This document shows, one piece after another, positions 24,947 through 54,336 of a DNA stretch of 64,000 bases. Position 1 is the first letter of the stretch; the number at the start of each line of letters is the position of its first letter. The stretch covers positions 195,974 to 259,973 of the forward strand of contig JBBEBG010000026.1 of assembly GCA_040882465.1 (NCBI GenBank), in the 5' to 3' direction. The notes under the pieces are model-generated. The model ran no database searches, was not told where the DNA came from, and saw only the letters and a program-made list of their open reading frames with translations. Both the position numbers and the translations under genes were made by a program. Source of the stretch: Gemmatimonadota bacterium. GTDB lineage: Bacteria > Gemmatimonadota > Gemmatimonadetes > Longimicrobiales > Gaopeijiaceae.

Positions 24947-26212
24947 ATGTTCGAGCTCACCCGAACTTTCCAATCGGCCGCGGCGCCACGTTCCGTCCGA
25001 GTCGCTCTCGCGGCGGTCGTCGCCGCGCTCACATTCGGGTGCACGCAGTCCTCCCGAATCACCGACCCCCTCCCACCGCCCCCCGGCCTGACCGTTCAGG
25101 GGCACCAGGTCTCCCTTGCGAACACTTCCTTCGGGCTCGGGCTCCTCACCCGCGTCCTCGAGGAAGAGACGGAGCCCAATGTCCTCCTCTCGCCCCTCAG
25201 CGCCTCCATGGCGCTCGGGATGACGCTGAATGGCGCGGTCGGCGAGACCTACGACGCGATGCGCGGGGCGCTCGGATTCGGGACGCTCTCCGAGGACGAG
25301 GTGAATGCGGCGTATCGCAACCTCATCGACCACCTGCGCGGGCTGGATCCGGACGTCGGGTTCGGCCTCGCGAACTCGGCGTGGCACGAGGAGTCCTTCC
25401 CGGTGAAGGCGCCCTTTCTCGACGCGGCGCGCATCCATTTCGACGCGGAGGTGCGCGCCCTCGACTTCTCCGATCCGGGCGCCCCCGGCGTGATCAGCGG
25501 GTGGGCCGAAGAGAAGACGGGCGGGCGCATCAAGGATCTCGTCACCAAGATCGATCCGGACGAGATGCTCTTCCTCGTGAACGCGGTTTACTTCAAAGCC
25601 CCGTGGGCTCTCCCCTTCAACGAATTTGGCACTCAGGCGGGGGCCTTTCGAACCCTCGCGGGCGCGGAGGCCACCGTGCCGCTCATGACGCTCGACGGTC
25701 CGGTCCTTCATTCGTCGGACGACCGGATCCAGGCGGTGGAGCTGCTTTACGCGGATAGCGCCTACGCGATGCTCGTGGTGGGTCCGGCGGAGGGAGGAAC
25801 CCTGGACGATGTGGAAGATGCGCTTACTCCGACCGGCCTCGCCGCGATCGTCGAGTCCCTCTCTTCGTCGCGCATCCTCCTGACCCTCCCGAAATTCCGG
25901 TTCGAGTACGACATCCGGCTCGATCCGGCGCTGACCGCGCTCGGGATGGGGATCGCCTTCGACCCCTGGCAGTCCAACTTCACTCGGATCGCCGACCGCG
26001 ACGACCTCTACATCACCCGGGTCGAGCAGAAGGCCTTCATAGACGTGCACGAGTTGGGGACCGAGGCCTCCGCGGCGACGTCTGTGGGCGTCGGCATCAC
26101 CTCGCTCCCACCACAGCTCACCTTCGGTCGGCCCTTCTACTTCCTGATCCGCGAACGCGCCGGCGGTGCGATCCTCTTCCTCGGCCGGGTGGGCGATCCC
26201 TCCCTGAATTGA
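24947..26212 (+). CDS. serpin (serine protease inhibitor) lipoprotein
   Basis: Lipobox LTFGC. Serpin fold throughout (NVLLSPLSASMALGMTLNGA...FLVNAVYFKAPW...). Hinge GTEASAATS before the reactive-centre loop, and C-terminal FLIRE motif. Confidence 0.85.
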   Translation: MFELTRTFQSAAAPRSVRVALAAVVAALTFGCTQSSRITDPLPPPPGLTVQGHQVSLANTSFGLGLLTRVLEEETEPNVLLSPLSASMALGMTLNGAVGETYDAMRGALGFGTLSEDEVNAAYRNLIDHLRGLDPDVGFGLANSAWHEESFPVKAPFLDAARIHFDAEVRALDFSDPGAPGVISGWAEEKTGGRIKDLVTKIDPDEMLFLVNAVYFKAPWALPFNEFGTQAGAFRTLAGAEATVPLMTLDGPVLHSSDDRIQAVELLYADSAYAMLVVGPAEGGTLDDVEDALTPTGLAAIVESLSSSRILLTLPKFRFEYDIRLDPALTALGMGIAFDPWQSNFTRIADRDDLYITRVEQKAFIDVHELGTEASAATSVGVGITSLPPQLTFGRPFYFLIRERAGGAILFLGRVGDPSLN

Positions 26213-40934: not shown

Positions 40935-41429
40935 ACCGGCGGGACGAACGGAACCATACAGCAACGGGGAGTGATCGTGAGACTCGAAAGCATTGCCGCA
41001 TGCGTCGTGGCCTGCGCCGTCCTCGGCGGTTGCGTGGCCGGGGCTCCGGAGGCCGAAGCTCCAGAAGCCGACGCCCCCACCGTGGTAGGGGAAAGGGTGA
41101 CCGTCGACGGAGGCGAATACACGAACATCGCCGTTCCCGAGCTCCAGGCGATGCTCGAGGACAAGGACTTCCCGCTGATCAACGTTCACATCCCGTACGC
41201 TGGGGATCTCCCCGGCACGGACGACTCCATCCCCTACAACGAGATCGGGAGCCATCTGGACCGGCTGCCGGCCGACAAGGGCGCGAAGATCGTCCTCTAC
41301 TGCCGGACCGGTCCGATGAGCGTGACCGCTGCTCGGGAGCTGGTGACCCTCGGGTACACGAACGTCTACAATCTGGTCGGCGGAATCACAGCATGGATCG
41401 AGTGGGGACTGCCACTGGCGGGCACGTAA
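40935..41429 (+). CDS. single-domain rhodanese lipoprotein
   Basis: GTG start after GGGGAG. Lipobox LGGCVAG. Rhodanese active site KIVLYCRTGPMS. Confidence 0.7.
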   Translation, partial: TGGTNGTIQQRGVIVRLESIAACVVACAVLGGCVAGAPEAEAPEADAPTVVGERVTVDGGEYTNIAVPELQAMLEDKDFPLINVHIPYAGDLPGTDDSIPYNEIGSHLDRLPADKGAKIVLYCRTGPMSVTAARELVTLGYTNVYNLVGGITAWIEWGLPLAGT

Positions 41430-41780
41430 CGCCAATTCACGCCAGAGTTGGCCGATGATCCGGGGGCCGGGGCGGACCGAGGATGGTTCGCCGCCTCCCG
41501 ACTCAAGGGATGAGGGCGGGTACCGGCGTCATGCGGTCTACGTCACCGTGCCCGAGGCGCCCGCGGAAACCCCATCCCCGGCAATAAATGGCGTCTCCGG
41601 TGGTGGCGCCGCGGGTGCGCGGGGATCCGGCTGGAATGACTCGCCGCTGGTGGCCGCCGCTCACGAGCGCAGGCACCGCTCTGTCGGTGGTCGTTCCCTC
41701 ACGGAGTCGGCCGCCGGCCTGGCCAGTCTGTTCTTCCACGAGAAACGGGCCGCTCCCGCACCCATTCCGGCCTGCACGTG

Positions 41781-42932
41781 TCAACGGTACCTGACAACGA
41801 TCTCTCCCCCGTCCGGAACGGCTTCGAATACGATGCGGTTGTCACGACGTTCATGACGGAGAACGTTTTCCGCCTGTGACAGCGCCATCTGGCCCCGGCC
41901 GGACGGAACCGTCAGAGCGATCGTCAGAGGCTGGTTGTACAGCGCATCGTCCGCAAGTTCATCCGAAAGCGTCAGCGTCATCCCCACATCTGTCTCTGAG
42001 TTCAAAGTCAGGCGCGCCGACCTTCGCTCCCTGTGGTATCGCAACGCCTTCCCGAATGTCGTCACCCACGTAAGAGACTGCCGATCCTGAACGATATTCA
42101 GATGTTCATTCAAGAGATCCTCGGATATCGGTTCCCACCAGGCATCCTCCACCGTGTCGGAGTGAATGCTGTGGTAGACGAGGATGTAGAGACCACCTGT
42201 TTCGATGGCAAAATCGAGGGTCTGGGTGAAGTCGGCACGATCGCGGATCACATATGCGTCCGTCGCGGAAATTCGGTAGTATTCTCGTTCGTCCGCAGCG
42301 AAGTCGTAGGGCATCACTGCGATAACCGGGTCGTACTTTCGGGCTCCCACGAAGTCCGAGCTTATCAGGTAGTCGATCGTCTCGGAGCCATCATAACCGA
42401 AGGGATACGCAAAGGTCGTTGGCACCACCCCGATACGCGCTCTGATGAGTTCATTCGCCCCCGCGATTTCGTGGTCCAGCCGCTCCAACATCGTCGGTGC
42501 GGGCCCTCCGCCGCCGCCCCCGGTCGGGGCTACGAGGCGGACATGTGACTGTGTATGATTAGCGATCTCGATCCCATTTCTCGCCGCGATATCCAGGTTG
42601 AGGTAGTCCTGGAACTCCGCATTTGCGGTGGTTACGAAGATCGTGGCCTCGATGCCGTGCCCAACAAGCATGGGAATTGCGAGCTCAGCTTGCCCTGGCG
42701 AAAGGTCGTCGAAGGTGAGGACGGTGGCGGAGCGCTTGAACTGAAACCACTCGGCGATCTCGTAGTCCAGGCCGTTCTCCAGGCCGGCTTGGCCTCCTTC
42801 CGCTTGGCCTGAGACGCCCGTGGCGGCGTCGCCCTCTTCCCTCGTGTTCGCATCGGGAGAGGTCCGCCCACACCCCGACAGCAACAGCGGGACGAAGCCG
42901 AGCGTGAGCCACATCGAAGTCTTGCTCTTCAC
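41781..42932 (-). CDS. polysaccharide deacetylase (NodB-homology, CE4) lipoprotein
   Basis: Lipobox LLLSGC. TFDD motif (ATVLTFDDLSPGQ). His motifs (IANHTQSHVRL, LVYHSIH). Local GC about 55-57%, versus about 70% in the flanks. Confidence 0.85.
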   Translation of the reverse strand: MKSKTSMWLTLGFVPLLLSGCGRTSPDANTREEGDAATGVSGQAEGGQAGLENGLDYEIAEWFQFKRSATVLTFDDLSPGQAELAIPMLVGHGIEATIFVTTANAEFQDYLNLDIAARNGIEIANHTQSHVRLVAPTGGGGGGPAPTMLERLDHEIAGANELIRARIGVVPTTFAYPFGYDGSETIDYLISSDFVGARKYDPVIAVMPYDFAADEREYYRISATDAYVIRDRADFTQTLDFAIETGGLYILVYHSIHSDTVEDAWWEPISEDLLNEHLNIVQDRQSLTWVTTFGKALRYHRERRSARLTLNSETDVGMTLTLSDELADDALYNQPLTIALTVPSGRGQMALSQAENVLRHERRDNRIVFEAVPDGGEIVVRYR

Positions 42933-43040
42933 CTGGAAGCTCCCCTGATGGTCACAGGCGGGCGCGTCGGGACTTCAGTCCTGACGGCGCCAGCGACGTC
43001 CGAGCCTTCTCGATCCGTCGGATCTGCGCGATCCTCCCAC

Positions 43041-44399
43041 TCACTTTCCAAGACTCAGCCTCTCGACCAAGGCTTCCGCCAGAACGCGGTTGAGTGCCCC
43101 GGAGTGGTGCCAGTCGTCGTCCGCGACCCTCCAGCGGCGCTCACTGAAGTCGACGATTCCGCTCAGGTCGATGACGGGCACCTGCTCGGCCTCGAGTGCC
43201 TTTTTGAGACGAACCACCGTCTCGGCCTGGTCTGCGGTCGAAACCGGAGCCATGACCACGTAGAAGTCGACCTCCTCAAAGAGTGGCTGGAGGCGATCGG
43301 CTACTGTCCGGAGGATACGCGCGGTCAGGACGAAGTCCCCGTCGCCGTACCGCAAAGGCAGAACCAGACCAAAACGACTCAGGATGTTCGAGCGATTCCA
43401 ATAGTGTTGCGCGAGCGTCCGAAGGGGCCGCGCACGGAAGAAGCTCCCGAGGCGCACGGGTTCGCCGGCCGCGCCCAATTCGTAGTAGGAGAATCCCTTC
43501 CCCCACACCGGCGCGACCTGACTACTTCCCACGACTCGGCCCATGTGCGCGGGGATGAATGTGTAGATCGCGATCCCTCGGCGTTCGGCGACTTCGCTTG
43601 CGAGGTCGCGCACGTCCAGTAGGTCGAGAGCCTGTGTCGGGCCGTAGCCGTGCATCCCGTAGTTGTACGGATGACTATCACCCGCCATGGAGGCGACCGC
43701 GGCCGGGAGCGTTTCTTCCTGATTGAGCCCCTCTCCAAAGGTGTTGGAGTCTCCAAAGAAGAGGAGGAACCGGTCCGACGACCGTCCACCGGTCCCCGGG
43801 GTTTCCCGCCGGCCCAAGGAGTCGATCCGATAGGTGACGTCGTACGCAACCTCGCCGTCCACCATGCTTCGATGACGAGCAGTCACGGCGGGGGAAACCA
43901 CATAGCTCAACACCTCGTCGAATTCGTAGTACGACCTGGCGTCGACCGGCTCCGGCTCGCCCTCGGCAATTGGCCAGGGCGGCGGCATGAGCCCCAGCAC
44001 GGTCTCCACTCCCAGCCCCAGTGCGATGAGAAGCGCCAGGTTGACCTGAATCAGGCGCGGCAAGACGGCGACGGCTGCGAAGCCCAGGGTTCCCAAGAGC
44101 GGCACGGCATGCAGCAGATGGAAAGCGAGCGGGTCGCTTTCCAAGGCGCCCAAGTGGATGCCGTCCGGGCCGACGGCGTGGATGCCCAGCGCGAGGAACC
44201 CCGCGTGAAGCGCCGCAGTCAGAGCACAAGTCGCGCGGACCGACGCACCCTTTTCGAAGGAAGGCAGCCTGAGGATCGCGAACCCGGCTGCGACTGCGAG
44301 TCCCGCCCCCAGTAGACCGTGGACCGGGGACAGGGGCGCCAAGAGCGCCAGTGTCGGGACCGCGGTCATCGGCGCAATCAGGCGCCCATACGGCCACAT
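43041..44399 (-). CDS. membrane-anchored SGNH/GDSL-family protein (putative glycan O-acyl esterase or transferase)
   Basis: N-terminal ~200 aa polytopic hydrophobic region. Then GDS block (FLLFFGDSNTFGEG) and C-terminal D-x-x-H (ADDDWHHSG). The start within ORF 43041..44573 is uncertain (M59 or M69). Confidence 0.65.
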   Translation of the reverse strand: MWPYGRLIAPMTAVPTLALLAPLSPVHGLLGAGLAVAAGFAILRLPSFEKGASVRATCALTAALHAGFLALGIHAVGPDGIHLGALESDPLAFHLLHAVPLLGTLGFAAVAVLPRLIQVNLALLIALGLGVETVLGLMPPPWPIAEGEPEPVDARSYYEFDEVLSYVVSPAVTARHRSMVDGEVAYDVTYRIDSLGRRETPGTGGRSSDRFLLFFGDSNTFGEGLNQEETLPAAVASMAGDSHPYNYGMHGYGPTQALDLLDVRDLASEVAERRGIAIYTFIPAHMGRVVGSSQVAPVWGKGFSYYELGAAGEPVRLGSFFRARPLRTLAQHYWNRSNILSRFGLVLPLRYGDGDFVLTARILRTVADRLQPLFEEVDFYVVMAPVSTADQAETVVRLKKALEAEQVPVIDLSGIVDFSERRWRVADDDWHHSGALNRVLAEALVERLSLGK

Positions 44400-44416
44400 C
44401 GTGTCGGCGACTCCGG

Positions 44417-46636
44417 TCAGGGTGAGCGGCTCTTGCGAGCCGCCTTTTGGGGTGCCCCTTCCCTGAATCCACGGGATCGAAGGAGGATGGAAGCCCGCGT
44501 CGGGATCGGTGATTCCGCTAGCGTGCGGGGAGGCGGTCGCCTTTCGGTGGCGGCACGCCGCAAACTGGTCCACGCCAACCGAAGGTCTTCGCGGGTTTCC
44601 TTGATACCCACAAGGTGCGTCATCGCGTACGCGAGGAACGCGCCATTAAAGGCCGCGAACGCCGAGTGAGCCCACCGCCCGAAGAAGAGGTCCACGATTG
44701 AGTTGACGAAGCAGTAGACAAGAAGGCCGATTGGAGCCAGGAGATAGAGGGCCTGCACGAACGTCCGCGAAGCGATCTTCGGCGTGCGTCCAAAGGGCGT
44801 CTTGCGTCCCGTCATCGCCTGGCGGAGAGACATGCCCACGCCGGCGAGGTGGACAGGGATCAGGAGCAAGTTGAGTGCATAGACCCGGAATACGTCGGTC
44901 CAGCTGTAGCCGGACAGCGCCTGGTCGCGCGCATAGAGCGCGAAATAAGGGAGGGCGGTCAGCGGAAGCCAAAAGCTGCGCATGGCTTCCTCGAACGGAT
45001 AAAGGATCAGAAGGAGGACTCCCAAGCTGCCCCCCGCCAGGGAGGTCAGATAATGCGTGCGCACGAACGCTTCTTGCGGCCGCACGAACGGAAGTGCCCT
45101 TCCCAGAATGTGGCGCAGGAGCTTGGGAAGAATGATCAGCCCCCCATTCGCCCAGCGGCGCCGCTGGATGACCAGGGCGCCGAAATCCGGAGGGGTCGCG
45201 CTGTAAGCGAGGCGGTTCGGGTAGTTGTACAGACTCCACCCCCGCTCGATCAGATCGATGCTGGATTCCGTGTCCTCGATCACGGTCCGGTCCTGAATGA
45301 ACCGAATTACCGGGTAGCCCCTTTCGACCCCGGGGACGGCGATTTCATCCAGGGCCGCTCTGCGGATAAGGGCGTTCGCGCCAACCCAATAGGTTCCCGC
45401 ACACCAAGTGAAGCCCTGGTGGACGATATGCTGAACGTCGGTGGTCGATCCTGCCAGCCGTTCAAGCCGGCTCGTGGCCCCGGGAAAGGCGCTGTACGGC
45501 GTCTGGATGACCGCGAGACGTTCTCTTCCCGGCTTCCGCATCTCGTGGATGAGGCGCAGGGCGTAGTCATTAAGCAGGGCGCTGTCCGCGTCGAGCGTGA
45601 TCAGCAACTCGGCTGCGGGCACTTCCAGGTCCGCCTCGGCCTCGGTCGTGGGCACGAGGTGCAAGCCGTCGGCCTGCCTGACCTTCTTGAATCGCCCTCC
45701 CATGAGCCCGATGTAAGCATTCAGGTTCATCGCCTTGTTCGCTTCGTGGGAAAGGTTCGTGTAGCCCTTTCGCTCGAAACTGGTGATGTCCGTTCGGAAG
45801 AGAGTCGCAAGGCGGCGATACTCTCGGTCAAGATCTGCGGGACTGAGCGAACGCCCAGTCCCCGTCGCGGACCTTCTCAGCTCCGCGGCTCGCTCGCGGT
45901 GGAGAGCCGCCGGATCGCGGAGGATCCTTGCAATGACGAGATCGTCGCTGTGGTCGAAGCGTGGGGCCCCATCTGCGAACTCCTCCAACCAACGCGCCGC
46001 CTCGTCATAATGCGCCGCAAGGGCGTGGCACTCTGCAACGTTTTCACACGTTCCGCCCTCCTTACGAGCGAAGTACCTGTCGCCCGCATCGGTGAAGCCC
46101 TTCGCCAGTGGGGCGAGCAGAGCGGAAAGGCGCTGCGGCAGATCCCGTGCGGCGGCAAGCCCGCGAGCCGCTTCGGGGGTGCTGGGGTTCGGCGAATCGT
46201 CAATCAGGAGGACGATGCTCTTGCGTGGGTACTCCATGAGGGCCGCGGAGAGCAGCGTTTGCCAAATGACCCTCTCCTCCTCCCGATACGATGGCACCAG
46301 CACCGTGAGCCAGGGAGCAGGCGCATCGTAGAGTCGCTCGAGCGCCTCCCTCGACGCCGGACGGTGGGCCCGACTTCGGACGAGTGAGCCAAGGCGCGCC
46401 ACCTGGTAGACCAGGTTGCCGTAGATCAGGAAGTAGACGATCGCAATGAAGATGCCCTGTTCGGCGATCCCCCAGGCGCCTCCTCCCCGAATTCGATCCC
46501 GAAGCGTGCCGCCGACGTCGCTGCCCAGCATCACCGCGGCAACCATCGTGACCCCGAGCGCCAGGAGTGTCAGCGCGATTTCGCGCCGGAACCGCGATTC
46601 GCAGGAGATCCCGGTCGCCGGACGCGTGGAGGTCAT
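44417..46636 (-). CDS. processive family-2 glycosyltransferase (synthase-type, PgaC/BcsA-like) with long insertion in the catalytic domain
   Basis: N-terminal TMs. D / DAD / TED / QRRRW motifs (LLIDDSPN, ITLDADS, IEDTESSIDL, QRRRWANG). Multiple C-terminal TMs. About 190 aa lie between the first Asp motif and DxD. Start taken at MTSTRPATG. Confidence 0.8.
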   Translation of the reverse strand: MTSTRPATGISCESRFRREIALTLLALGVTMVAAVMLGSDVGGTLRDRIRGGGAWGIAEQGIFIAIVYFLIYGNLVYQVARLGSLVRSRAHRPASREALERLYDAPAPWLTVLVPSYREEERVIWQTLLSAALMEYPRKSIVLLIDDSPNPSTPEAARGLAAARDLPQRLSALLAPLAKGFTDAGDRYFARKEGGTCENVAECHALAAHYDEAARWLEEFADGAPRFDHSDDLVIARILRDPAALHRERAAELRRSATGTGRSLSPADLDREYRRLATLFRTDITSFERKGYTNLSHEANKAMNLNAYIGLMGGRFKKVRQADGLHLVPTTEAEADLEVPAAELLITLDADSALLNDYALRLIHEMRKPGRERLAVIQTPYSAFPGATSRLERLAGSTTDVQHIVHQGFTWCAGTYWVGANALIRRAALDEIAVPGVERGYPVIRFIQDRTVIEDTESSIDLIERGWSLYNYPNRLAYSATPPDFGALVIQRRRWANGGLIILPKLLRHILGRALPFVRPQEAFVRTHYLTSLAGGSLGVLLLILYPFEEAMRSFWLPLTALPYFALYARDQALSGYSWTDVFRVYALNLLLIPVHLAGVGMSLRQAMTGRKTPFGRTPKIASRTFVQALYLLAPIGLLVYCFVNSIVDLFFGRWAHSAFAAFNGAFLAYAMTHLVGIKETREDLRLAWTSLRRAATERRPPPRTLAESPIPTRASILLRSRGFREGAPQKAARKSRSP

Positions 46637-47145
46637 AGGCCTTCGGGAGAACTGCGTCTGGTCGGCGTTAAGGCGGACGTTGGCAGGTAGGTTGAAAAGT
46701 GAGTAACCTCTCGAAGACCGACACCAAGTGTCAAGCCGCCGGCCTTGAAGCCCCCGGCAAGGGTTTGGCCGCTCGGGCAAGGCGAATGGAAATCTGCAAT
46801 CGGTATGCCGGGAAGTTTGGGGCTCGCCCCAAGAGACACGGAGGACTGAGATCGTTGATGAGGCGGGCTTCTTGGGAGGCCGTTATCATGTCCGCCGGAT
46901 GGAGCCGGGGCGTATCGTTCGCAGTGTCGCGACGGCACCTGTGGCGAGCAATCACCAGGTAGGGTGGTCCTGGCGGCGTTGGTTGCCAACCGCCGCGCCG
47001 TCTTTCGGGATTCGACTGAATCGAGCACTCGTCGCTGCCGGCCGCCCTATGGGCCCAGTTCTTGCGCTCTTGCGGCCCCCGCCGCACCTGCGAGCCAGCA
47101 CTGATCCGATCGCGTGGGGACAGCGACCAGAATGAGTCAACCTGA

Positions 47146-48990
47146 ATGAGCGATCGAGTGGACGGCCGACAAGTGCGCGTGCTCGGCATTTCGGCATTTT
47201 ACCACGACAGCGCCGCATGCCTAGTGGTCGATGGCAAGATCGTGGCGGCCGCATCTGAAGAACGCTTCACTCGGATCAAAGGCGATTCCGCGTTCCCCAT
47301 TCGAACCATCGAGTTCTGCCTCGAGCAGGGGGGGATCGAGGCCAAGGAGCTCGACGTCGTCGGCTTCTACGACAAGCCGCTGCTCAAGTTCGAGAGGATT
47401 CTGGAGACCTACGTGGGGGTCGTCCCGCGTGGATTCCGGTCCTTCTTGATGGCAGGGCCTCTCTGGATGAAGGAAAAGCTGTTCATGGAGCGTGAGATCC
47501 GCCGCTCCCTCGGATACGACGGAGAGCTCCTCTTCGCGGAGCATCACGAATCCCATGCGGCAAGTGCCTTTTTCCCCTCGCCCTTCGACGAGGCCGCCAT
47601 CCTCACGTTGGACGGAGTCGGGGAGTGGGCGACGGCGACTATGGGTGTGGGAAGGGGGAACGACATCGAGCTGTTCCGGGAGCTGCATTGGCCGGACTCT
47701 CTCGGCCTCCTCTACTCCGCATTCACATACTACACCGGATTCAAGGTCAACTCGGGGGAATACAAGGTCATGGGGCTGGCGCCTTACGGGGAGCCTCGGT
47801 TCGTGGACCTGATCTTGGATAGGCTGATCGACCTCCGTCCAGACGGCTCGTTCAGGATGAATCAGGACTACTTCGGCTACCTCACCGGCCTGACCATGAC
47901 GAACGGGGCGTTCGACGAGCTCTTCGGAGGCCCTCCGCGGAAGCCCGAGTCATTGCTGACCCAGCGTGAGATGGACCTCGCACGCTCGGTCCAAGAAGTG
48001 TGCGAAGAGATCATGTTACGGATGGCCCGCACCGCCCATCGCGAGACTGGCCTCGATCGTCTCTGTCTTGCCGGGGGAGTCGCCCTCAACTGCGTCGGGA
48101 ATGGTCGGCTCCTCCGCGAGGGTCCTTTCAAGGAGATCTGGATCCAACCGGCCGCCGGAGATGCCGGTGGAAGTCTTGGTGTCGCGCAGCTCATCTGGCA
48201 TCGCCATCTGGACCGCCCACGCGCGGTGACGCCCGGAAGGGATTCGATGAAAGGATCTTACCTGGGACCCGAATTTTCGGAGGCCGAGATCGAAGAGTAT
48301 CTGACGGGGGTGGGCGCGGTATATCGGAAGCTCGAGCGGAACGAACTGAACGAGCGGGTTGCGGCCCAGATGGCGGAGGGAAAGATCGTCGGGTGGTTCA
48401 ACGGTCGGATGGAATTCGGGCCGAGGGCCCTCGGTGCCCGAAGCATCTTGGGAGATCCGAGGAATCCGCACATGCAGACCCAGATGAATCTGAAGATCAA
48501 GTTCCGGGAAAGCTTTCGCCCATTCGCTCCCAGCGTACTTCGGGAACGAGTCGCCGACTACTTCGAGCTGGACGTGGACTCGCCTTACATGCTTCTCGTG
48601 GCGCCGGTCAAGGAGGAGCGTCGAATCCCGATGTCGGAAGCCTCGGGCAAGCTTTGGGGAATCGAGAAGCTGAAGGTGCCGAGATCGGACATCCCGGCGA
48701 TCACGCACGTGGACTACTCTGCGCGGGTGCAGACCGTCGACCGAGAGACGAGTCCCGACTATTACGACTTGATCCGGGCCTTCGAGGGGCTCACCGGCTG
48801 TGGCGTTCTCGTGAATACTTCCTTCAACGTGCGTGGGGAACCCATCGTTTGCACGCCGGAGGACGCGTATCGCTGCTTCATGCGCACCGATATCGATTCG
48901 TTGGTCCTCGGCCGCTTTTTCCTTGCGAAAGAGGACCAGCCGGCATGGAAGGAGGAATCCGATTGGAAAACACAGTTCCAGCTCGACTGA
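47146..48990 (+). CDS. carbamoyltransferase (NodU/CmcH/NovN family)
   Basis: VLGISAFYHDSAACLVVDGKIVAAASEERFTRIKGDSAFP (Kae1/YgjD-like N-domain) and a C-terminal carbamoyl-phosphate domain. 614 aa. Confidence 0.9.
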   Translation: MSDRVDGRQVRVLGISAFYHDSAACLVVDGKIVAAASEERFTRIKGDSAFPIRTIEFCLEQGGIEAKELDVVGFYDKPLLKFERILETYVGVVPRGFRSFLMAGPLWMKEKLFMEREIRRSLGYDGELLFAEHHESHAASAFFPSPFDEAAILTLDGVGEWATATMGVGRGNDIELFRELHWPDSLGLLYSAFTYYTGFKVNSGEYKVMGLAPYGEPRFVDLILDRLIDLRPDGSFRMNQDYFGYLTGLTMTNGAFDELFGGPPRKPESLLTQREMDLARSVQEVCEEIMLRMARTAHRETGLDRLCLAGGVALNCVGNGRLLREGPFKEIWIQPAAGDAGGSLGVAQLIWHRHLDRPRAVTPGRDSMKGSYLGPEFSEAEIEEYLTGVGAVYRKLERNELNERVAAQMAEGKIVGWFNGRMEFGPRALGARSILGDPRNPHMQTQMNLKIKFRESFRPFAPSVLRERVADYFELDVDSPYMLLVAPVKEERRIPMSEASGKLWGIEKLKVPRSDIPAITHVDYSARVQTVDRETSPDYYDLIRAFEGLTGCGVLVNTSFNVRGEPIVCTPEDAYRCFMRTDIDSLVLGRFFLAKEDQPAWKEESDWKTQFQLD

Positions 48991-49370
48991 GCGCCCACGA
49001 GGGCAAGAAATTCGCGCTCACGGTGGGCGCGGCCTTCCTCGTGCTGGCCGGCGTTGCCTGGCGGAGGGATCATCTCAGGGTCGCGGGAGGGCTCGCGGCG
49101 CTGGGCGGACTCCTGGCGATCGCCGGTGTCCTGATTCCCGGCCAGCTGGGGCCGGCTTATCGGGCATGGATGGGCTTCGCGCACCTCCTGTCCAGGATCA
49201 CGACACCCATCTTTCTAGCCGCCACCTATTACCTTGCGTTTTTCCCCACCGGGATGTTGATGCGACTCTTCGCCCGCAACCCGATGGTCCGGAAGCCTGT
49301 GGATGGAAGTTATTGGGTGGACCGCCCCGACGGCGCGGGACGGCGGAGTGACCTCGAGCGGCAGTTCTGA
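48945..49370 (+). CDS. SxtJ-like small membrane protein
   Basis: Reading frame at the 3' end of ORF 48000..49370 (KKFALTVGAAFLVLAGVAWRRDHL...AATYYLAFFPTGMLMRLF). Start uncertain: ATG 48945 overlaps the carbamoyltransferase end, alternative GTG near 49023. Confidence 0.45.
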   Translation: MEGGIRLENTVPARLSAHEGKKFALTVGAAFLVLAGVAWRRDHLRVAGGLAALGGLLAIAGVLIPGQLGPAYRAWMGFAHLLSRITTPIFLAATYYLAFFPTGMLMRLFARNPMVRKPVDGSYWVDRPDGAGRRSDLERQF

Positions 49371-49394
49371 ACGGGACTACAGAAGGATGAGTTG

Positions 49395-49544
49395 ATGAGC
49401 CTGATCAAAGAGCTGTGGGCCTACATGCGATCGCGAAAGAAATACTGGCTGCTGCCGATCCTCGTGGTGATGCTCCTCGTGGGGTCGCTCCTGGTGTTCG
49501 CGCAGGGCTCCGCGCTCGCGCCGTTCATCTATACGATCTTCTAA
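49395..49544 (+). CDS. DUF5989-family small membrane protein (49 aa), absent from the ORF track
   Basis: ATG 49395 after AGAAGGA. MSLIKELWAYMRSRKKYWLLPILVVMLLVGSLLVFAQGSALAPFIYTIF, stop TAA 49542-49544. Matches the conserved small protein that accompanies carbamoyltransferase/SxtJ pairs. Confidence 0.55.
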   Translation: MSLIKELWAYMRSRKKYWLLPILVVMLLVGSLLVFAQGSALAPFIYTIF

Positions 49545-49951
49545 CCAACGGCGAGCGACGCACGCGAACGGCCGCCGTTCTAGTCGAGCCCCTCATGGGG
49601 ACACGTCATCATGGCGACCGAGGCTGGGCCGCGTTCGATTCGCCTCCGGAATTCGCTCGACAACGCGAGAATAGGACGACGTCTCCGGGATGTCCCGGAC
49701 ATGCCGCGAAGCGGGTGAGCTGGGGCCCGATGGCTCCAGGAGCCGAGCACGCGAGACAGACGCGGGGGAGGAGGACCTCGCGACCACCCTTCGCTCCGTG
49801 CCCGAGGGCAAGGAGCCGTGCCCAGGAGATGCGGCTCGTGGAACTCCATCGGGGCTCGGGAACCGGTTCGACCTGCGCCCCTGCCGAACGCATCGGTGCC
49901 CCGTTCAGGAACCACGAGTCTCACTCCGACGCTCCTTCCGCGCTCGAGGAT

Positions 49952-50011
49952 TGACGCCACCCCAAAGATGTAGATATCCTACCCCCTAAGATGTAGGCTT
50001 CCTACACCCCA
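49952..50011 (+). promoter_or_regulatory. padR promoter region with two tandem 23-bp repeats, each containing GTAG-N5-CTAC
   Basis: TTGACG 49952..49957. Repeat 1 AAGATGTAGATATCCTACCCCCT (49966..49988) and repeat 2 AAGATGTAGGCTTCCTACACCCC (49989..50011). RBS AAGGGG, then ATG 50024. Confidence 0.5.
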
Positions 50012-50023
50012 AGGGGACCAACG

Positions 50024-50380
50024 ATGACCAAGCAGCCACTCGCGCGCATCGAGCTCCTCCAGGGAACGCTCGACCTCATTATCCTCCAGACGCTTCGGTG
50101 GGGCCCACGGCACGGCTACGGGATTTCCCAGATGATCCGCGCCAACTCGAGCGAGCTCCTCCAGGTCGAGACGGGCTCCCTCTATCCTGCGCTCCACCGC
50201 CTCGAACGGAGAGGTTGGATCAAGGCGGACTGGACTCTGTCCGAGAACAATCAGCGGGTACGGGAATACCGCCTCACGGACGCGGGCCGGAAGCAACTCG
50301 TCCAGGAGCGCACCCGCTGGGCACAGCTCACCTCCGCAATGGCGCAAATTCTCGAGGCGCCGGAAGGAGGGCCGGCATGA
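50024..50380 (+). CDS. PadR-family transcriptional regulator
   Basis: LQGTLDLIILQTLRWGPRHGYGISQMI...LYPALHRLERRGWI. ATGA overlap with the downstream permease. Confidence 0.85.
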   Translation: MTKQPLARIELLQGTLDLIILQTLRWGPRHGYGISQMIRANSSELLQVETGSLYPALHRLERRGWIKADWTLSENNQRVREYRLTDAGRKQLVQERTRWAQLTSAMAQILEAPEGGPA

Positions 50381-53019
50381 CCCCGTTTTTCTCACGCAAC
50401 CGCCGCGAACGCGAGCTGGAAGACGAAATCCAGGCGCACGTGGACATGGCCGTCGCAGAGCGTGTGGCCCGCGGGGAATCCCGTGTTGACGCCGAACGGG
50501 CCGTACGTCGGGAATTCGGAGACCCCGGGCGGGTGAAGGAGGTCACCCGCACGATGTGGGGCGGGATGTGGCTCGACCGCCTGGAGCAGGACCTTCGATT
50601 CGGATTCCGCTCGCTCTTCCGCGACCGCGGATTTTCGCTCGCGGCCACGCTCGTCCTCGTGGTGGGAATCGGCGCCAACGCCATCGTCTTCACCCTCGCC
50701 CATCGAGTTCTCTTCGAGGATCCCCCTGGAGTCGGAAGTGCCGATGAGCTCGTGGGGCTTCAGTGGTTGAACGAGAATGGCGACGAATCCTCCTGGTCTT
50801 ACACGGACTTCAAATTCGTCCGCGAGGAGAACGGGGTTTTCTCGGATGTCTTTGCATATACGGGCTTTCCCTTGACCGCCGCGGTGAGGTGGGATGACTC
50901 TCCCCCGTCGCCCGCCGACGGCTGGGTCGTTTCGCACAACTTCTTTCAGGCGCTCGGAACGGGATTGGCGTTGGGCCGCGGATTCCTCCCGGAGGAAGGG
51001 GTGACCCCCGGAACCCATCCCGTCGTCGTCCTCGATCACGCCTTCTGGCAACGCGAGTTCGGAGCCGACTCGGCCATCCTCACCAGGACGATCGCTCTGA
51101 ATGGCACCCCCTTCATCGTGGTGGGCGTGACCGAGGCCGACTTCCGCGGAATCACCCCCATTGATGTGTCGCCGGACTTCTACGTTCCCGTGACGATGCA
51201 GGGGGCGCTGGCCGCCGGTTGGGAGGAGATGCTCGAGCGCCGCCCCGGGGAGTCCAACTCCTGGCTCAAGGTGATCGCGCGGCTCGGCGCGGAAGCTTCT
51301 CTGGAATCCGCCCGCTCGGACATGGACGTCCTTGCCTTCGCGTGGCAGGAGGAATTCGGCGACTGGGCACGCAGCAACGACGTCGCCGGGGTTCGCATGG
51401 AGGTGAGCTCGGACCCGGGATTCTCCCCCGGAGAGGCCGAGCGGCTGCACCGGACGATTTGGCTTCTGGGGATCGTTGCGGGCGCCGTGCTCTTCATCGG
51501 ATGCGCGAACCTGGTCATCCTCCTTCTCGCTCGCGGGTCGGCGCGGGAGGGAGAGATCGGCGTGCGCGCGGCGCTCGGCGCGGGCCGTGGCCGGCTGCTC
51601 CGACAGCTCCTGACCGAAAGCGCACTCCTGGCCGGCGTCGCGTGTGTCGCGGGCCTCGCCCTGGCATATTGGGGAGCGGGAATCGTGGCGCGGCTTCTTC
51701 CTTTCTACTTCGCGGCCGACATGACGCCCGACGGCTTGGTGCTTCTCGGAACGGTCGCCGTGACGCTGATCATGACCGCAGTTTTCGGCCTGGCCCCCGC
51801 CCTGAAGTTGTCCAGCACCGATCTCGGGACGACACTTCGACGCCAGCTACGGAACACGCGCCGAAGCCCCGCGCGCAGCGCGCTCGTCGTCGGTCAGATC
51901 GCCGCTTCCGTGGTTCTCGTCGCGGGGGCCGGCCTCTTCGTGCGAAGCGTCCTTGCGGCCCGGTCGGTGGAACTGGGATTCGATCCGGAGAATCGGGTCC
52001 TCATGAGCGTGCAGCTCGGTACCCACGGCTACGACGCGGAGGGCGTGCAGCTCTTTCAGCGAGGGGTCCTCGAGCGCATCCGGGCACTCCCGGGCGTCGT
52101 GTCCGCCGCCCTCACCGATCGGGGCCCCTTCAGCGGGCGCTCGACAAGTAACTTTCGCCCGATCGGCACCGAGTATGAGGAGGAGGGGCTCAATCTCTCC
52201 ATGAACCGGGTCGGCGCCGGCTACTTCGAAACGATGGGCGTCCAGGTCGTGGCCGGGCGGCCGATCACCGAGGTAGACGACGGATATGCGGTCCGCTCTC
52301 TGGTGATCAGCCGGACGGCGGCCGAACGGCTTTTCCCGGGGGAGAGCGGGGTGGGGAGAATCTTCCGGTGGCGGGACGACGAGTGGACCGTGGTGGGAGT
52401 GGCCGAGGACGCCAAGTATTACAGCCTCGGAGAGGAACCGGTGAGCCGCGTATACGTTCCTCAGGCCCGGGTGGATGATGGAAACCTCACCTTCGTCGCC
52501 CGGACCGCGGTCCCGCCGGCCGGCCTGGTCTCAGCGATCGAGGGGGCGATCCACGAGGTGGACCCGGCCGTGGCCGTCTTCGGTGTCCAGACGCTACAGG
52601 ACCTGGTGGATGGGCAGACCAACTCCTACCGCTCCATGGCCGTTCTCGTGAGCGCCTTCGGGTTGGTCGCACTCATCCTCGCGGCCGTTGGGCTTTACGG
52701 CGTCCAGGCCTACGTCGTCGGGCAACGGTCGAAAGAGATCGGCATCCGAATCGCGATGGGTGCGCGGGCCGGGGAGGTCGCGTCGTCCATCCTCGGTCGA
52801 GGCGCCGTCCTTTCGCTCGTGGGGGTGTCGATCGGCGTGGCGGTCGCCTTCGGGCTGGGGCGAATCGTGGAAGGGATGCTCTTCGGGGTGGAACCCCAGG
52901 ACCCCGTGACGTTCGTCGGGGTCGCGGCCCTGCTCCTCGCCGTCGCACTCGCCGCCAGCTACTTCCCCGCCCGCCGGGCCGGCCGGTTGGACCCGATGAT
53001 GGTCTTGAAGGAGGAGTAG
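50377..53019 (+). CDS. MacB-like ABC permease (MacB periplasmic core domain + two FtsX modules)
   Basis: ATG 50377 after GGAAGGAGG. Two FtsX 4-TM blocks with large periplasmic domains. ORF 50098.. trimmed to the coupled start. Confidence 0.85.
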   Translation: MTPFFSRNRRERELEDEIQAHVDMAVAERVARGESRVDAERAVRREFGDPGRVKEVTRTMWGGMWLDRLEQDLRFGFRSLFRDRGFSLAATLVLVVGIGANAIVFTLAHRVLFEDPPGVGSADELVGLQWLNENGDESSWSYTDFKFVREENGVFSDVFAYTGFPLTAAVRWDDSPPSPADGWVVSHNFFQALGTGLALGRGFLPEEGVTPGTHPVVVLDHAFWQREFGADSAILTRTIALNGTPFIVVGVTEADFRGITPIDVSPDFYVPVTMQGALAAGWEEMLERRPGESNSWLKVIARLGAEASLESARSDMDVLAFAWQEEFGDWARSNDVAGVRMEVSSDPGFSPGEAERLHRTIWLLGIVAGAVLFIGCANLVILLLARGSAREGEIGVRAALGAGRGRLLRQLLTESALLAGVACVAGLALAYWGAGIVARLLPFYFAADMTPDGLVLLGTVAVTLIMTAVFGLAPALKLSSTDLGTTLRRQLRNTRRSPARSALVVGQIAASVVLVAGAGLFVRSVLAARSVELGFDPENRVLMSVQLGTHGYDAEGVQLFQRGVLERIRALPGVVSAALTDRGPFSGRSTSNFRPIGTEYEEEGLNLSMNRVGAGYFETMGVQVVAGRPITEVDDGYAVRSLVISRTAAERLFPGESGVGRIFRWRDDEWTVVGVAEDAKYYSLGEEPVSRVYVPQARVDDGNLTFVARTAVPPAGLVSAIEGAIHEVDPAVAVFGVQTLQDLVDGQTNSYRSMAVLVSAFGLVALILAAVGLYGVQAYVVGQRSKEIGIRIAMGARAGEVASSILGRGAVLSLVGVSIGVAVAFGLGRIVEGMLFGVEPQDPVTFVGVAALLLAVALAASYFPARRAGRLDPMMVLKEE

Positions 53020-53152: not shown

Positions 53153-53185
53153 CTAATGCCATTTTGCGACCCAATATGGCATTAG
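53153..53185 (+). promoter_or_regulatory. 10-bp perfect inverted repeat CTAATGCCAT-N13-ATGGCATTAG enclosing the start of the AAA-ATPase gene
   Basis: The right arm begins with the preferred ATG (53176). TTGACA at 53129..53134 upstream. Confidence 0.45.
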
Positions 53186-54336
53186 AAAGGCGATTTTTCG
53201 CCGTCCCGGACCGGAGCTTCTTTCTCTTCGGTCCGCGCGGCACCGGAAAGACCACCTGGCTTCGCCAGGCGCTGCCGACGGCGCTCTGGTTGAACCTCCT
53301 GCACCCGGAGGAATACCGGGCCTTAAAGGCTCGCCCGGAAAGGCTGCGAGAGCTGGTCCTCGGGGCCTCGCAAGCGCAGTCGGACGTGGTCATCGATGAG
53401 GTGCAGCGCGTCCCGGAACTCCTGAACGTCGTCCACGACCTCATGGAGTCCGGGCCACCGAAGCGGTTCGCGCTCACCGGATCCAGCGCCCGCAAGCTAC
53501 GCCAGGGCGGGGTCGATTTGCTCGGGGGCCGCGCAGTCCTGAAAACCCTCCATCCGTTCATGGCGTCGGAGTGGTCCGGTTTCTCCCTCACCGGGGCCCT
53601 CGCGCACGGATTGCTCCCGTTGGTCGTATCGTCGTCCGCACCTGATGAGGTGCTCGGCGCTTACGTGGGGCTTTACCTGGAGCAGGAGGTCAAGGCGGAA
53701 GGGCTGGTGCGGAACCTGGGGGACTTCGCGCGCTTCCTGGAAGCGGTGAGCTTCTCGCATGCCCAGGTGCTGAACGTGAGCTCGGTGGCGCGGGACACGG
53801 GCGCGAACCGCAGGACGGTTCAGGGCTTCCTGGAGGTGCTGGAGGATCTGCTCCTCGCGTTCCGCGTTGACGTATTCACGCGAAGGGCCAAACGGAAACC
53901 TGCGGCACATCCCAAGTTCTACCTCTTCGACGCAGGGGTTTTCCGCTCGCTTCGACCCTCGGGCCCGCTCGACCGACCGGCGGAGATCGACGGCGCCGCC
54001 CTGGAAGGGCTCGTCGCGCAGCATCTTCGTGCGTGGGTGGCGTATTCGGAACGCGACCTCTCACTATACACTTGGCGCACCCGATCCGGAGTCGAAGTCG
54101 ATTTCGTCCTCTACGGGCCCGATGGTTTCTGGGCCGTGGAAGTGAAGAACGGCTCGGAGGTGCGTCCCGCCGATCTGCGGGGCCTGAAGGCTTTTCGAGA
54201 GGATTATCCGGAGTCCGAAGCGGTACTTCTATACCGCGGTGAGCGACGGATGCGGAAAGGAGACGTGCTTTGCCTACCGGTCGAGGACTTCCTCGTGTCC
54301 CTCGCGCCCGTCTACGGTTCGATCATAGAGGTGTGA
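53176..54336 (+). CDS. AAA-family ATPase with C-terminal DUF4143-like domain
   Basis: Walker A FLFGPRGTGKTT and Walker B VVIDEVQ. ORF begins at TTG 53164; ATG 53176 (MALERRFF) preferred. Confidence 0.75.
   Translation: MALERRFFAVPDRSFFLFGPRGTGKTTWLRQALPTALWLNLLHPEEYRALKARPERLRELVLGASQAQSDVVIDEVQRVPELLNVVHDLMESGPPKRFALTGSSARKLRQGGVDLLGGRAVLKTLHPFMASEWSGFSLTGALAHGLLPLVVSSSAPDEVLGAYVGLYLEQEVKAEGLVRNLGDFARFLEAVSFSHAQVLNVSSVARDTGANRRTVQGFLEVLEDLLLAFRVDVFTRRAKRKPAAHPKFYLFDAGVFRSLRPSGPLDRPAEIDGAALEGLVAQHLRAWVAYSERDLSLYTWRTRSGVEVDFVLYGPDGFWAVEVKNGSEVRPADLRGLKAFREDYPESEAVLLYRGERRMRKGDVLCLPVEDFLVSLAPVYGSIIEV

Follow-up and report, generated by a model that had tools for sequence, protein, structure and literature searches.

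We found that six adjacent genes of a soil Gemmatimonadota bacterium, read from a 64-kb window (the whole stretch of DNA that we analyzed), probably act as one module for the synthesis and tailoring of a polysaccharide of the envelope or the extracellular space. They encode a processive membrane synthase of glycosyltransferase family 2 (GT2), a membrane SGNH protein, a CE4 (NodB-homology) deacetylase lipoprotein, and a cassette consisting of an O-carbamoyltransferase, an SxtJ-like protein, and a DUF5989 peptide. We favor a single module because the same six families occur together in operons of two other organisms (L168 and L170/L171), and because GT2-SGNH and SGNH-CE4 fusion proteins exist. 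These findings support an earlier, sequence-only reading of the locus as a deacetylated, carbamoylated glycan system, insofar as it describes one system in which a synthase-type GT2 is combined with a CE4 and carbamoylation genes.

The six gene positions and family assignments of the sequence-only reading were borne out by an ORF and coordinate check and by Pfam profiles; its GT2 ORF is longer, starting at a TTG upstream of our 739-aa call. The two halves of the locus are divergently transcribed rather than forming one operon, and are separated by 509 bp (46637-47145, read from the sequence) that presumably hold the promoters of both the GT2 operon and the carbamoyl operon. Nothing in Rfam matched this intergenic region at E ≤ 1; a single weak promoter-like site was found on the minus strand (47223-47196), and the number of such sites was not above chance expectation. 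The flanks have no link to glycans: sulfur transport and rhodanese genes lie on one side, and PadR and MacB/FtsX permease genes on the other. Among the flanking genes scanned, no further glycan gene lies within about 10 kb of the cassette, and neither the locus nor these flanks encode an outer-membrane porin, TPR scaffold, co-polymerase, or PilZ domain. The locus thus lacks an outer-membrane exporter gene, although it comes from a phylum with two membranes.

The GT2 (44417-46636, minus strand; 739 aa) is a member of a very large uncharacterized family of membrane-integrated processive synthases. It matches Pfam Glyco_trans_2_3 (E = 3.7e-29) and has the catalytic motifs LIDD (residues 144 to 147), DAD (349 to 351), ED (454 to 455), and QRRRW (491 to 495); hydropathy and a structural model place two N-terminal and several C-terminal transmembrane helices on either side of the GT domain. 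Residues D146, D349/D351, E454-D455, and Q491RRRW495 are invariant in 64 GT2 homologues, as is F615-G-R-T-P-K620, which resembles a gating-loop motif: F, T, and K of FxVTxK are kept, and R replaces V. The AF2 model (pLDDT 90.7, pTM 0.90) has only membrane-integrated processive synthases as Foldseek neighbors, the best being BcsA (E = 2e-13), plant CesA, hyaluronan synthase, CslF6, and chitin synthases; the probability is 1.0 for BcsA, CesA, hyaluronan synthase, and CslF6, with TM-scores of 0.42 to 0.51 over the full length. In catalytic motifs, helices on both sides, and overall fold, the enzyme has the properties of processive GT2 synthases, and its earlier description as a long synthase-type GT2, not a short NodC, holds. 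Leaving aside the window's own protein, its best homologue has 58% identity. Bacteria with a single membrane (Actinobacteria, Enterococcus, and Saccharibacteria) have members of the family as well, and some members adjoin Acyl_transf_3 or MBOAT genes.

Like BcsA, CesA, hyaluronan synthase, PgaC, and IcaA, the window GT2 places a GT-A domain between transmembrane helices and has the D, DxD, (T)ED, and Q(Q/R)xRW motifs; its FxxTxK sequence may correspond to their gating loop. BcsA-type synthases rank first among its PDB matches in both sequence and fold, yet identity is about 16%, and the window enzyme differs from them in a 125-residue, four-helix insertion (residues 154 to 278) that separates the first Asp from the KAxNLN/DxD region, as well as in the absence from the window of a PilZ domain, BcsB, PgaD, or an outer-membrane partner. 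All NCBIfam equivalog scores fell far below cutoff. We rejected cellulose synthase BcsA proper: the CelA domain match (E = 2.6e-19) reaches 68.7 bits against an equivalog cutoff of 699, there is no PilZ match, and no BcsB-like gene lies nearby. Weak NCBIfam matches to MdoH/OpgH (E = 8e-9) were also seen.

The CE4 protein (41781-42932, minus strand; 383 aa) matches Polysacc_deac_1 (E = 5.5e-15; 55.9 bits, cutoff 23.1) and has the Asp-His-His metal motifs of the NodB-homology family, TFDD (residues 73 to 76) and HxxxH (HTQSH, 126 to 130), as well as AYPFG (175 to 179). It gave no sequence match in the PDB. A lipobox (LLSGC, residues 17 to 21) predicts a lipoprotein located outside the cytoplasmic membrane. 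This CE4 clusters with those encoded beside the carbamoyl cassette elsewhere; its lineage differs from that of the CE4 usually found after GT2-SGNH, and the six-gene operons carry a CE4 that is not orthologous to it.

The membrane SGNH protein (43041-44399, minus strand; 452 aa) begins with four transmembrane helices, after which come a small beta domain and an SGNH domain whose predicted location is the periplasmic side. Its Lipase_GDSL_2 match (20.3 bits) is under the Pfam cutoff, and other evidence rescues the assignment; the protein has the block I GDS Ser, the block II and III Gly and Asn, the block V DxxH, and the flavodoxin-like fold of the SGNH/GDSL superfamily. It is homologous (hhalign 99.3%, E = 5e-20) to a family of membrane GDSL proteins encoded after the cassette in 21 loci, habitually in the SxtL position, and the fold of this subtype is closest to CgnD. 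The protein may thus act on carbamoyl groups instead of attaching acyl groups; O-acylation, as proposed in the sequence-only reading, is just one option.

The three plus-strand genes form a tightly conserved and separate mobile cassette. The carbamoyltransferase (47146-48990; 614 aa) is of the CmcH/NodU/TobZ type: Carbam_trans_N (E = 6.5e-93, 312 bits) and Carbam_trans_C (E = 2.3e-74, 249 bits) both match above the gathering score, and the family motif GPRALGxRS is present as GPRALGARS at residues 425 to 433. Its PDB relatives are 7xb6 (E = 4e-91), GdmN (E = 4e-89), NovN, and TobZ; it is related to ATP- and carbamoyl-phosphate-dependent enzymes and is predicted from its sequence to be soluble, with neither a transmembrane helix nor a signal peptide. 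Far from being divergent, as it had been called, the enzyme lies in a very conserved clade, typical of cassette-only loci, in which its best 120 homologues are 76 to 80% identical. The SxtJ-like gene (48945-49370; small membrane protein, 141 aa) overlaps the end of the carbamoyltransferase gene by 46 nt, which suggests translational coupling. Its PF19588 match (E = 1.4e-4, 23.0 bits) is below the Pfam cutoff of 24.4, but the protein is 58 to 60% identical to proteins from loci L082 and L083 that pass it. The DUF5989 peptide (49395-49544; 49 aa; PF19451, E = 9e-26) has a single N-in transmembrane helix, with five K/R before the helix and none after; RKKWWL...APFIYTlF is conserved in 61 homologues, and the window peptide has the C-terminal APFIYTLF motif. 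An SxtJ gene directly follows the carbamoyltransferase gene in at least 64 of 83 cassette loci, and the order carbamoyltransferase, SxtJ-family gene, and ~50-aa single-helix peptide is likewise kept in at least 64 of the 83. In other genomes the cassette is found in surface-glycan loci of many kinds, with Wzy-type, GtrB-like GT2, GT-C, aminotransferase, and epimerase genes; its two most frequent enzymatic companions are a membrane SGNH protein and a CE4.

A parallel in gene order comes from saxitoxin biosynthesis, where sxtI, sxtJ, sxtK, and sxtL (1839, 405, 165, and 1281 bp, sxtK being located after sxtJ) encode a carbamoyltransferase, two small unknown proteins, and a GDSL lipase (PMC2679770). 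A joint action of SxtI, SxtJ, and SxtK is assumed there, and a decarbamoylase role is proposed for SxtL (PMC2679770). Both order and sizes match the cassette (614, 141, and 49 aa) plus a 415- to 452-aa membrane GDSL/SGNH protein. A direct (Pfam) family match to the saxitoxin proteins exists for SxtJ only, and DUF5989 corresponds to SxtK by position and size only. The saxitoxin substrate is an alkaloid, not a glycan, and the window's homologue of the membrane SGNH family is encoded not in the SxtL position but in the divergent synthase operon. Carbamoylation of a surface glycan by a CmcH-family enzyme is known from WapO (PA5005), the heptose carbamoyltransferase of the Pseudomonas lipopolysaccharide (LPS) core (PMC8005017). 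This likeness is by family description: WapO modifies a lipid-linked substrate during assembly of the LPS core, without a synthase, and no SxtJ or DUF5989 partner for it is mentioned in that paper.

Other known systems share parts of the gene set. In poly-N-acetylglucosamine (PNAG) systems (PgaABCD and IcaADBC), as in the window, a synthase is paired with an extracytoplasmic CE4, which there partly de-N-acetylates the polymer after translocation; the window adds the SGNH protein and the carbamoyl cassette. A PNAG system was rejected: PgaC_IcaA scores 27.7 bits against a cutoff of 422 and PIA_icaB 19.3 against 248, and the flanks contain no PgaA porin or PgaD. The parallel with Nod-factor chemistry drawn in the sequence-only reading stands at the level of families, since NodC, NodB, and NodU belong to the same three (GT2, CE4, and NodU/CmcH-type carbamoyltransferase), but does not extend to equivalogs: we rejected NodC (17.3 bits, cutoff 550) and NodU (126.4 bits, cutoff 1000). 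Moreover, the window GT2 is long and channel-type, its CE4 is an exported lipoprotein while the Nod CE4 is cytoplasmic, and SxtJ, DUF5989, and the SGNH protein have no Nod counterpart. Compared to the periplasmic O-acetylation and de-acetylation machineries AlgI/AlgJ/AlgX, PatA/PatB/Ape1, and OafA AT3-SGNH, the window lacks an MBOAT or AT3 partner; the top fold match of its SGNH protein is CgnD, and carbamoyl, not acetyl, may be the group that is donated.

GT2, SGNH, and CE4 make up a recurrent core, in which the SGNH gene directly follows that of the GT2 and the two proteins are sometimes fused. One GT2-SGNH fusion, P0320, shares 52% identity with the window GT2 over 680 aa, and P0287 is an SGNH-CE4 fusion. 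In 87 other loci anchored on the GT2, its neighbor is an SGNH homologue in 18, a CE4 of the L170 type in 15, and both in 7; GT2-SGNH-CE4 is also found on five more contigs and in loci L085 and L172. In L086, GT2-SGNH is followed by a G8/CEMIP beta-helix protein of 1345 aa, possibly an enzyme that degrades glycans. In L168 and L170/L171, all six families lie on one strand with small gaps, in the order GT2-SGNH-SxtJ-DUF5989-carbamoyltransferase-CE4, which differs from that of the window; the cassette has met the core in at least two different arrangements, and the six-family grouping is not due to chance. Because the carbamoyltransferases of these operons are only 60 to 61% identical to that of the window, as against 76 to 80% for those of cassette-only loci, and because gene order differs, the data point to separate events in which the cassette joined the core. 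Two other organisms hold all six families, but the cassette was found within 10 kb of the GT2 in 0 of 80 representative genomes that encode a GT2 of this family, the synthase in 0 of 83 cassette loci, and the cassette is absent from the three closest GT2 relatives examined. The cassette joins this synthase only rarely.

As a single module, the locus could work as follows. The synthase would polymerize a UDP-sugar, perhaps a HexNAc as the CE4 partner suggests, at the inner face of the membrane and thread the chain through its own channel. Using ATP and carbamoyl phosphate, the cytoplasmic carbamoyltransferase would O-carbamoylate the sugar donor, a primer, or the non-reducing chain end where it faces the cytoplasm, with SxtJ and DUF5989 holding it at the membrane beside the synthase. 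The periplasmic CE4 lipoprotein would then take off some acetyl groups, and the SGNH enzyme might edit ester or carbamate substituents, either as a transferase or, like SxtL in its proposed role, as an esterase or decarbamoylase. Several observations weigh against a single module: the rarity of the synthase-cassette association, the divergence of the two halves together with a CE4 that is not orthologous to that of the six-gene operons, the lack of obvious access for a cytoplasmic carbamoyltransferase to a polymer that is extruded during synthesis, and the missing porin, TPR scaffold, co-polymerase, and PilZ domain in a host with two membranes.

It is quite unlikely, in our estimate, that two independent modules merely lie next to each other, such that the GT2-SGNH-CE4 glycan is uncarbamoylated and the cassette serves another surface glycan (LPS or another exopolysaccharide) encoded elsewhere. 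The null counts (0 of 80 and 0 of 83) would fit such an arrangement, as would the divergent transcription, the varied company that the cassette keeps in other loci, and a carbamoyltransferase from the cassette-only clade; set against these are the co-directional six-gene operons, the absence of other glycan genes within about 10 kb, and the fact that the window encodes the cassette's two commonest enzymatic companions, membrane SGNH and CE4, nowhere but in the GT2 operon. A single module whose product is something other than a secreted exopolysaccharide also seems unlikely, if less so: it would make a periplasmic or membrane-associated glycan resembling osmoregulated periplasmic glucans (OPGs), or a short, Nod-factor-like oligosaccharide, capped by carbamoyl at its non-reducing end. 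Cytoplasmic carbamoylation is easiest to explain on a chain end or a short product, and the missing porin, TPR protein, and co-polymerase, the weak MdoH/OpgH matches, and the Acyl_transf_3 or MBOAT neighbors of other family members agree with this; succinylation of OPGs by OpgC, an Acyl_transf_3 protein, is a precedent. But the fold neighbors of the GT2 are polymer-translocating synthases, it has the gating-loop-like motif, the beta-helix protein of L086 could degrade glycans, and a periplasmic glucan makes less sense in the single-membrane bacteria that share the family.

The origin of the locus is a separate question. The sequence-only reading proposed horizontal acquisition of a block of 55 to 62% GC within flanks of 70%; a dip does exist, but its size was overstated. 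The six-gene region has 62.65% GC, compared to 66.7% in the remainder of the window, and no other 7.76-kb stretch within the 64 kb is as low in GC; CE4 is the only gene below 60%, and GC3 is 0.754 inside the region versus 0.802 outside (P = 0.03). These values, together with neighboring genes unrelated to glycans and a best GT2 homologue of 58% identity, might indicate a recently acquired genomic island whose lower GC reflects foreign origin, a scenario we regard as improbable. The deviation is only about 4 points; we found no tRNA at the locus and no integrase, transposase, or other mobility gene among the flanking genes scanned; and the closest named relatives of the carbamoyltransferase are from the host phylum (Gemmatimonadota and Longimicrobiales). 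The strong composition shift, border mobility genes or tRNA, and discordant phylogeny expected of an island were thus not seen. In addition, the carbamoyltransferase gene lies 2 to 6 GC points below its own flanks in 7 of 7 closest-clade loci checked; part of the dip is therefore intrinsic to this gene, and horizontal transfer is not shown.

We thus continue to favor one module, in which a processive synthase, its SGNH and CE4 partners, and the carbamoyl cassette would together make and tailor a polysaccharide. In line with the sequence-only reading, which knew of none, literature searches yielded no characterized system with this gene set; a carbamoyl-tailored, synthase-dependent glycan system would be one with no characterized counterpart in the literature searched.

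The six genes lie at 41781-49544 of the window, where the sequence-only reading had placed them. On the minus strand, the GT2 synthase gene (44417-46636; 739 aa) is followed, 17 nt past its stop codon, by the gene for a membrane SGNH protein (43041-44399; 452 aa) and, 108 nt beyond that, by a CE4 gene (41781-42932; 383 aa). A 509-bp gap separates these from the plus-strand cassette: a carbamoyltransferase gene (47146-48990; 614 aa), an SxtJ-like gene (48945-49370) that overlaps the end of the carbamoyltransferase gene by 46 nt, and a DUF5989 gene (49395-49544; 49 aa). The GT2, CE4, and DUF5989 proteins and both domains of the carbamoyltransferase score well above their Pfam thresholds, while the SGNH protein (GDSL, 20.3 bits; cut-off, 32.9) and the SxtJ-like protein (23.0 bits; cut-off, 24.4) fall short of theirs.

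None of the flanking genes scanned is related to glycans: one flank encodes a rhodanese, a sulfur-transport protein, and TusA; the other encodes a PadR regulator, then an ∼880-aa MacB_PCD/FtsX permease (together 50024-53019, plus strand), and a DUF4143/AAA_14 ATPase (53164-54336, plus strand). A candidate 133-aa ORF (41455-41856, plus strand) without a Pfam match runs toward the CE4 gene, overlaps its 3′ end by 76 nt, and is also called as a gene on the matching contig of Logan run SRR27977658. Elsewhere, the window encodes a full-length bacterial serpin (24947-26212, plus strand; Pfam Serpin E value, 2.7e-91), adjoined by an ABC transporter (26265-28109) and an alpha/beta-hydrolase peptidase (28128-29879); the equal length of 614 aa had raised the suspicion that 26265-28109 was a second carbamoyltransferase, which was rejected. 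An Rfam scan of 41000-50500 at an E value of ≤1 gave no match, and hence no c-di-GMP or other riboswitch; promoter and terminator motifs were no more numerous than in shuffled controls.

The GT2 has >5,300 homologues at an E value of ≤1e-10; the best 120 of these are full length and 50 to 58% identical, and none carries an informative name. Copies in 80 representative genomes come from Proteobacteria, Nitrospirota, Chlorobi, Actinobacteria, Chloroflexota, Planctomycetota, Saccharibacteria, and an Enterococcus; we found no characterized member. D146 (in LIDD), an NKAMNLN box, D349xD351, E454-D455, and Q491RRRW495 are invariant in 64 sequences, as is F615-G-R-T-P-K620, which we take to resemble the FxVTxK gating loop of BcsA and CesA. 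Confidence in the AF2 model is high (pLDDT, 90.7; pTM, 0.90); the model comprises two N-terminal helices, a GT-A domain, an interface helix bearing QRRRW, and a C-terminal helix bundle. Its GT-A domain contains a four-helix insertion (residues 154 to 278; pLDDT, 94 to 98) with nearly invariant R191, E202, W216, H229, D231, Y273, and R275; we know of no equivalent in BcsA or PgaC. Foldseek matched the model in the PDB to membrane-integrated processive synthases only: BcsA (E value, 2e-13; ∼16% identity), plant CesA, the Chlorella virus and Xenopus hyaluronan synthases, CslF6, and chitin synthases. Assignments as a BcsA (CelA), PgaC_IcaA, MdoH, or NodC equivalog were rejected because NCBIfam scores were far under the cut-offs. 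Judged by its conserved residues and predicted fold, the GT2 is a synthase-type enzyme of an uncharacterized family and a member of no named one.

The family of the SGNH protein has invariant S218 (in GDSNTFGEG), N246, G251, and H431, and nearly invariant D429. Its AF2 model (pLDDT, 89.3) shows four transmembrane helices, a small beta domain, and an SGNH fold, and the positive-inside rule places the catalytic domain outside the cytoplasmic membrane. A profile search yielded 8,216 cluster representatives at an E value of ≤1e-3 and 1,794 at ≤1e-30; close homologues are nearly all labeled hypothetical, and no Pfam family scores above threshold for this partner family. The CE4 protein has a lipobox (LLSGC, residues 17 to 21) and metal-binding motifs (TFDD, 73 to 76; HTQSH, 126 to 130), and is thus predicted to be an exported, probably active deacetylase. 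Sequence searches of the PDB with the CE4 protein and the SGNH profile gave no match, and an assignment of the CE4 protein as an IcaB equivalog was rejected on its NCBIfam score.

In other loci of the GT2 family, the SGNH gene is replaced by genes for an MBOAT protein plus an unannotated 450-aa protein, for Acyl_transf_3, or for PMT_2, as would be expected if periplasmic tailoring modules were interchangeable. At six such loci (L003, L004, L015, L020, L024, and L030), the MBOAT gene and that for the conserved ∼450-aa protein (motif ILGTSRS, no Pfam match) lie about 1.5 to 5 kb downstream of the GT2 gene; the latter protein is possibly an AlgJ/DltD-like partner. At L086, whose synthase is a close relative of the window's, a 1,345-aa G8/CEMIP beta-helix protein (7361-11398 of that locus) is encoded directly after GT2-SGNH and may act on the GT2 polymer as a hydrolase or lyase.

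The carbamoyltransferase had been described as divergent, but its 120 best homologues are 76 to 80% identical to it. Its nearest solved relatives are 7xb6, GdmN, NovN, and TobZ; an assignment as a NodU equivalog was rejected on its NCBIfam score. It contains GPRALGxRS, the catalytic signature according to the saxitoxin literature. At least 64 of 83 related loci preserve the order carbamoyltransferase-SxtJ-DUF5989, most exceptions being incomplete contigs, and the overlap of the first two genes recurs in loci L082 and L083. SxtJ retains RKFG, PVYxxWM, and SYW boxes with no obvious catalytic residues; DUF5989, of which we found no mention in the literature, is a peptide with a single helix, oriented N-in, whose C-terminal APFIYTLF is conserved. 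In the saxitoxin cluster, sxtI-sxtJ-sxtK-sxtL measure 1,839, 405, 165, and 1,281 bp, and the sxtL product is a GDSL lipase proposed to be a decarbamoylase (PMC2679770, PMC2684587, PMC2885083); L082 agrees with this cluster gene for gene in size and order.

Recurrent neighbors in the 83 cassette loci include a membrane-anchored GDSL protein of about 415 aa (21 loci), a small GtrB-like GT2 (19), a Wzy-like protein (14), a methyltransferase (13), an epimerase (12), CE4 (10, window included), GT-C-like membrane proteins (10 and 7), and a DegT aminotransferase (9). Because its neighbors are so often glycan genes, we regard the cassette as a portable accessory of surface-glycan loci; our literature searches found nothing that ties the sxtI-J-K cassette to polysaccharides. 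At nine loci (L118, L122, L123, L130, L131, L137, L141, L142, and L144), it lies amid genes for a GtrB-like GT2, GT-C-like membrane proteins, a DegT aminotransferase, an epimerase, and CE4, a set that recalls the Arn (undecaprenyl-phosphate aminoarabinose) pathway; by analogy, the sugar carbamoylated in those organisms may be lipid-linked.

Whether the GT2-SGNH-CE4 core and the cassette belong together was less straightforward. Sampling anchored on the GT2 and on the carbamoyltransferase pointed at first to chance juxtaposition: no cassette lay within 10 kb of the GT2 gene at any of 80 genome loci, no synthase was found in the 83 cassette loci, and the three closest GT2 relatives examined occur as GT2-SGNH(-CE4), GT2-SGNH-G8 protein, or GT2 plus a PMT_2 protein, all without the cassette. 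The link surfaced only via homologues of the SGNH protein. In one other organism (L168), GT2-SGNH-SxtJ-DUF5989-carbamoyltransferase-CE4 run on one strand with minimal gaps, the CE4 gene being cut by the contig end; the same six genes are complete in L170 and L171, which represent one organism in two forest-soil samples (99.96% identical). GT2-SGNH-CE4 without the cassette was found in L172 and in five contigs (L173 to L177). The six-family combination proposed in the sequence-only reading therefore does recur, but it is rare.

The L168 and L170 carbamoyltransferases are 83% identical to each other and each only 60 to 61% identical to the window's; the cassette gene order in both is permuted relative to the window; and the window CE4 groups with cassette-associated CE4s, whereas the L170-type CE4 is the usual one after the GT2. 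Because it is of this different lineage, the window CE4 as a tblastn query had under-counted GT2-CE4 linkage, which we corrected by re-querying with the L170 CE4. Together, these differences in identity, gene order, and CE4 lineage suggest that cassette and core came together on at least two separate occasions, which is better evidence of function than one arrangement passed on by descent would be. Three additional results support the link. Among 87 other GT2-anchored loci, 18 have the SGNH gene, 15 the L170-type CE4 gene, 7 both, and 2 all six genes. Two database proteins are predicted fusions: P0320 (1,086 aa) couples an SGNH domain to a GT2 synthase that shares 52% identity with the window's across 680 residues, and P0287 (745 aa), by profile search, joins SGNH and CE4 domains. 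Lastly, by hhalign (99.3%; E value, 5e-20), the SGNH family linked to the GT2 shares homology across 294 columns with the GDSL family linked to the cassette. Against a joint system, we count the rarity of the association, the organization of the window's two halves as divergent operons, and the finding at the locus of no outer-membrane exporter, co-polymerase, or PilZ domain in a host with two membranes. On balance, we consider it quite unlikely that core and cassette are adjacent by chance. That the product is periplasmic or oligomeric, rather than a secreted polymer, seems to us unlikely too, if a little less so, and is compatible with most of the reading of a joint glycan system.

The sequence-only reading had suggested horizontal acquisition; recent arrival of the locus as an island seems to us as improbable as chance adjacency. 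The locus is the lowest-GC 7.76-kb stretch of the 64 kb, but the gap is 4 points (62.65% versus 66.7% in the rest of the window) instead of 8 to 15; GC3 is 0.754 inside and 0.802 outside (P = 0.03; 4 genes versus 41). The carbamoyltransferase gene is 2 to 6 GC points under its own flanks in all seven closest-clade loci checked, so this strongly conserved gene itself accounts for some of the dip. A tRNA scan found none, the flanking genes scanned include no mobility genes, and the closest named relatives of the carbamoyltransferase are from Gemmatimonadota and Longimicrobiales; horizontal acquisition is thus not borne out.

The locus, then, combines a synthase-type GT2 with two proteins that recur beside it and can be its fusion partners, an SGNH enzyme facing outward and a CE4 lipoprotein, and with a cytoplasmic carbamoyltransferase that has two small membrane partners. 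We propose that the synthase would polymerize a nucleotide sugar and extrude the chain, which the CE4 protein would partly deacetylate outside the membrane. The characterized relatives TobZ and GdmN require ATP and carbamoyl phosphate; because it would need both, the carbamoyltransferase presumably acts in the cytoplasm. At the synthase entrance, where SxtJ and DUF5989 may tether it, it would most likely modify the donor, the primer, or the non-reducing chain end. In Nod factors, NodU and NolO modify the terminal residue; by analogy, a carbamoyl group capping the non-reducing end could also stop chain growth. The SGNH enzyme may trim or redistribute ester or carbamate groups, consistent with the role proposed for SxtL. 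A bolder version, which we regard as a long shot, is a relay of four proteins that moves carbamoyl groups through the envelope. In the cytoplasm, the carbamoyltransferase would activate carbamate in the form of carbamoyl-AMP; SxtJ and DUF5989 would hand the carbamoyl group over, or present it, across the membrane; and the active-site serine of the membrane SGNH protein, as the last station, would carry it in the periplasm to freshly extruded polymer. If true, such a relay would do for carbamoyl groups what the MBOAT/AT3 plus SGNH machineries do in O-acetylation, and it would account for the company that this SGNH subtype keeps with carbamoyltransferases, both in glycan loci and in the clusters for saxitoxin (SxtL) and crocagin (CgnD); the crocagin paper mentions no SxtJ/K-like genes in its cluster.

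Like the PNAG, acetylated cellulose, and alginate systems, the locus appears synthase-dependent with post-translocation tailoring, but membership tests place it in none of the three; likewise, it echoes the enzyme families of NodC, NodB, and NodU but is not a Nod system. Glycan carbamoylation by the CmcH family is known from WapO of the Pseudomonas LPS core (PMC8005017). The locus pairs a very large uncharacterized synthase family with an equally uncharacterized SGNH family, and the GT2 product, once defined, would extend the short list of synthase-dependent polysaccharides (cellulose, PNAG, alginate, Pel, and hyaluronan). It is also the first concrete case outside toxin biosynthesis in which the sxtI-J-K(-L) cassette can be tested, and a tractable one for SxtJ and SxtK, small membrane proteins unexplained since 2008. 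It raises the concrete question of the cell compartment in which carbamoylation takes place; if the polymer is carbamoylated, the locus would show how a cytoplasmic ATP-dependent tailoring enzyme can be coupled to a polymer that is exported during synthesis.
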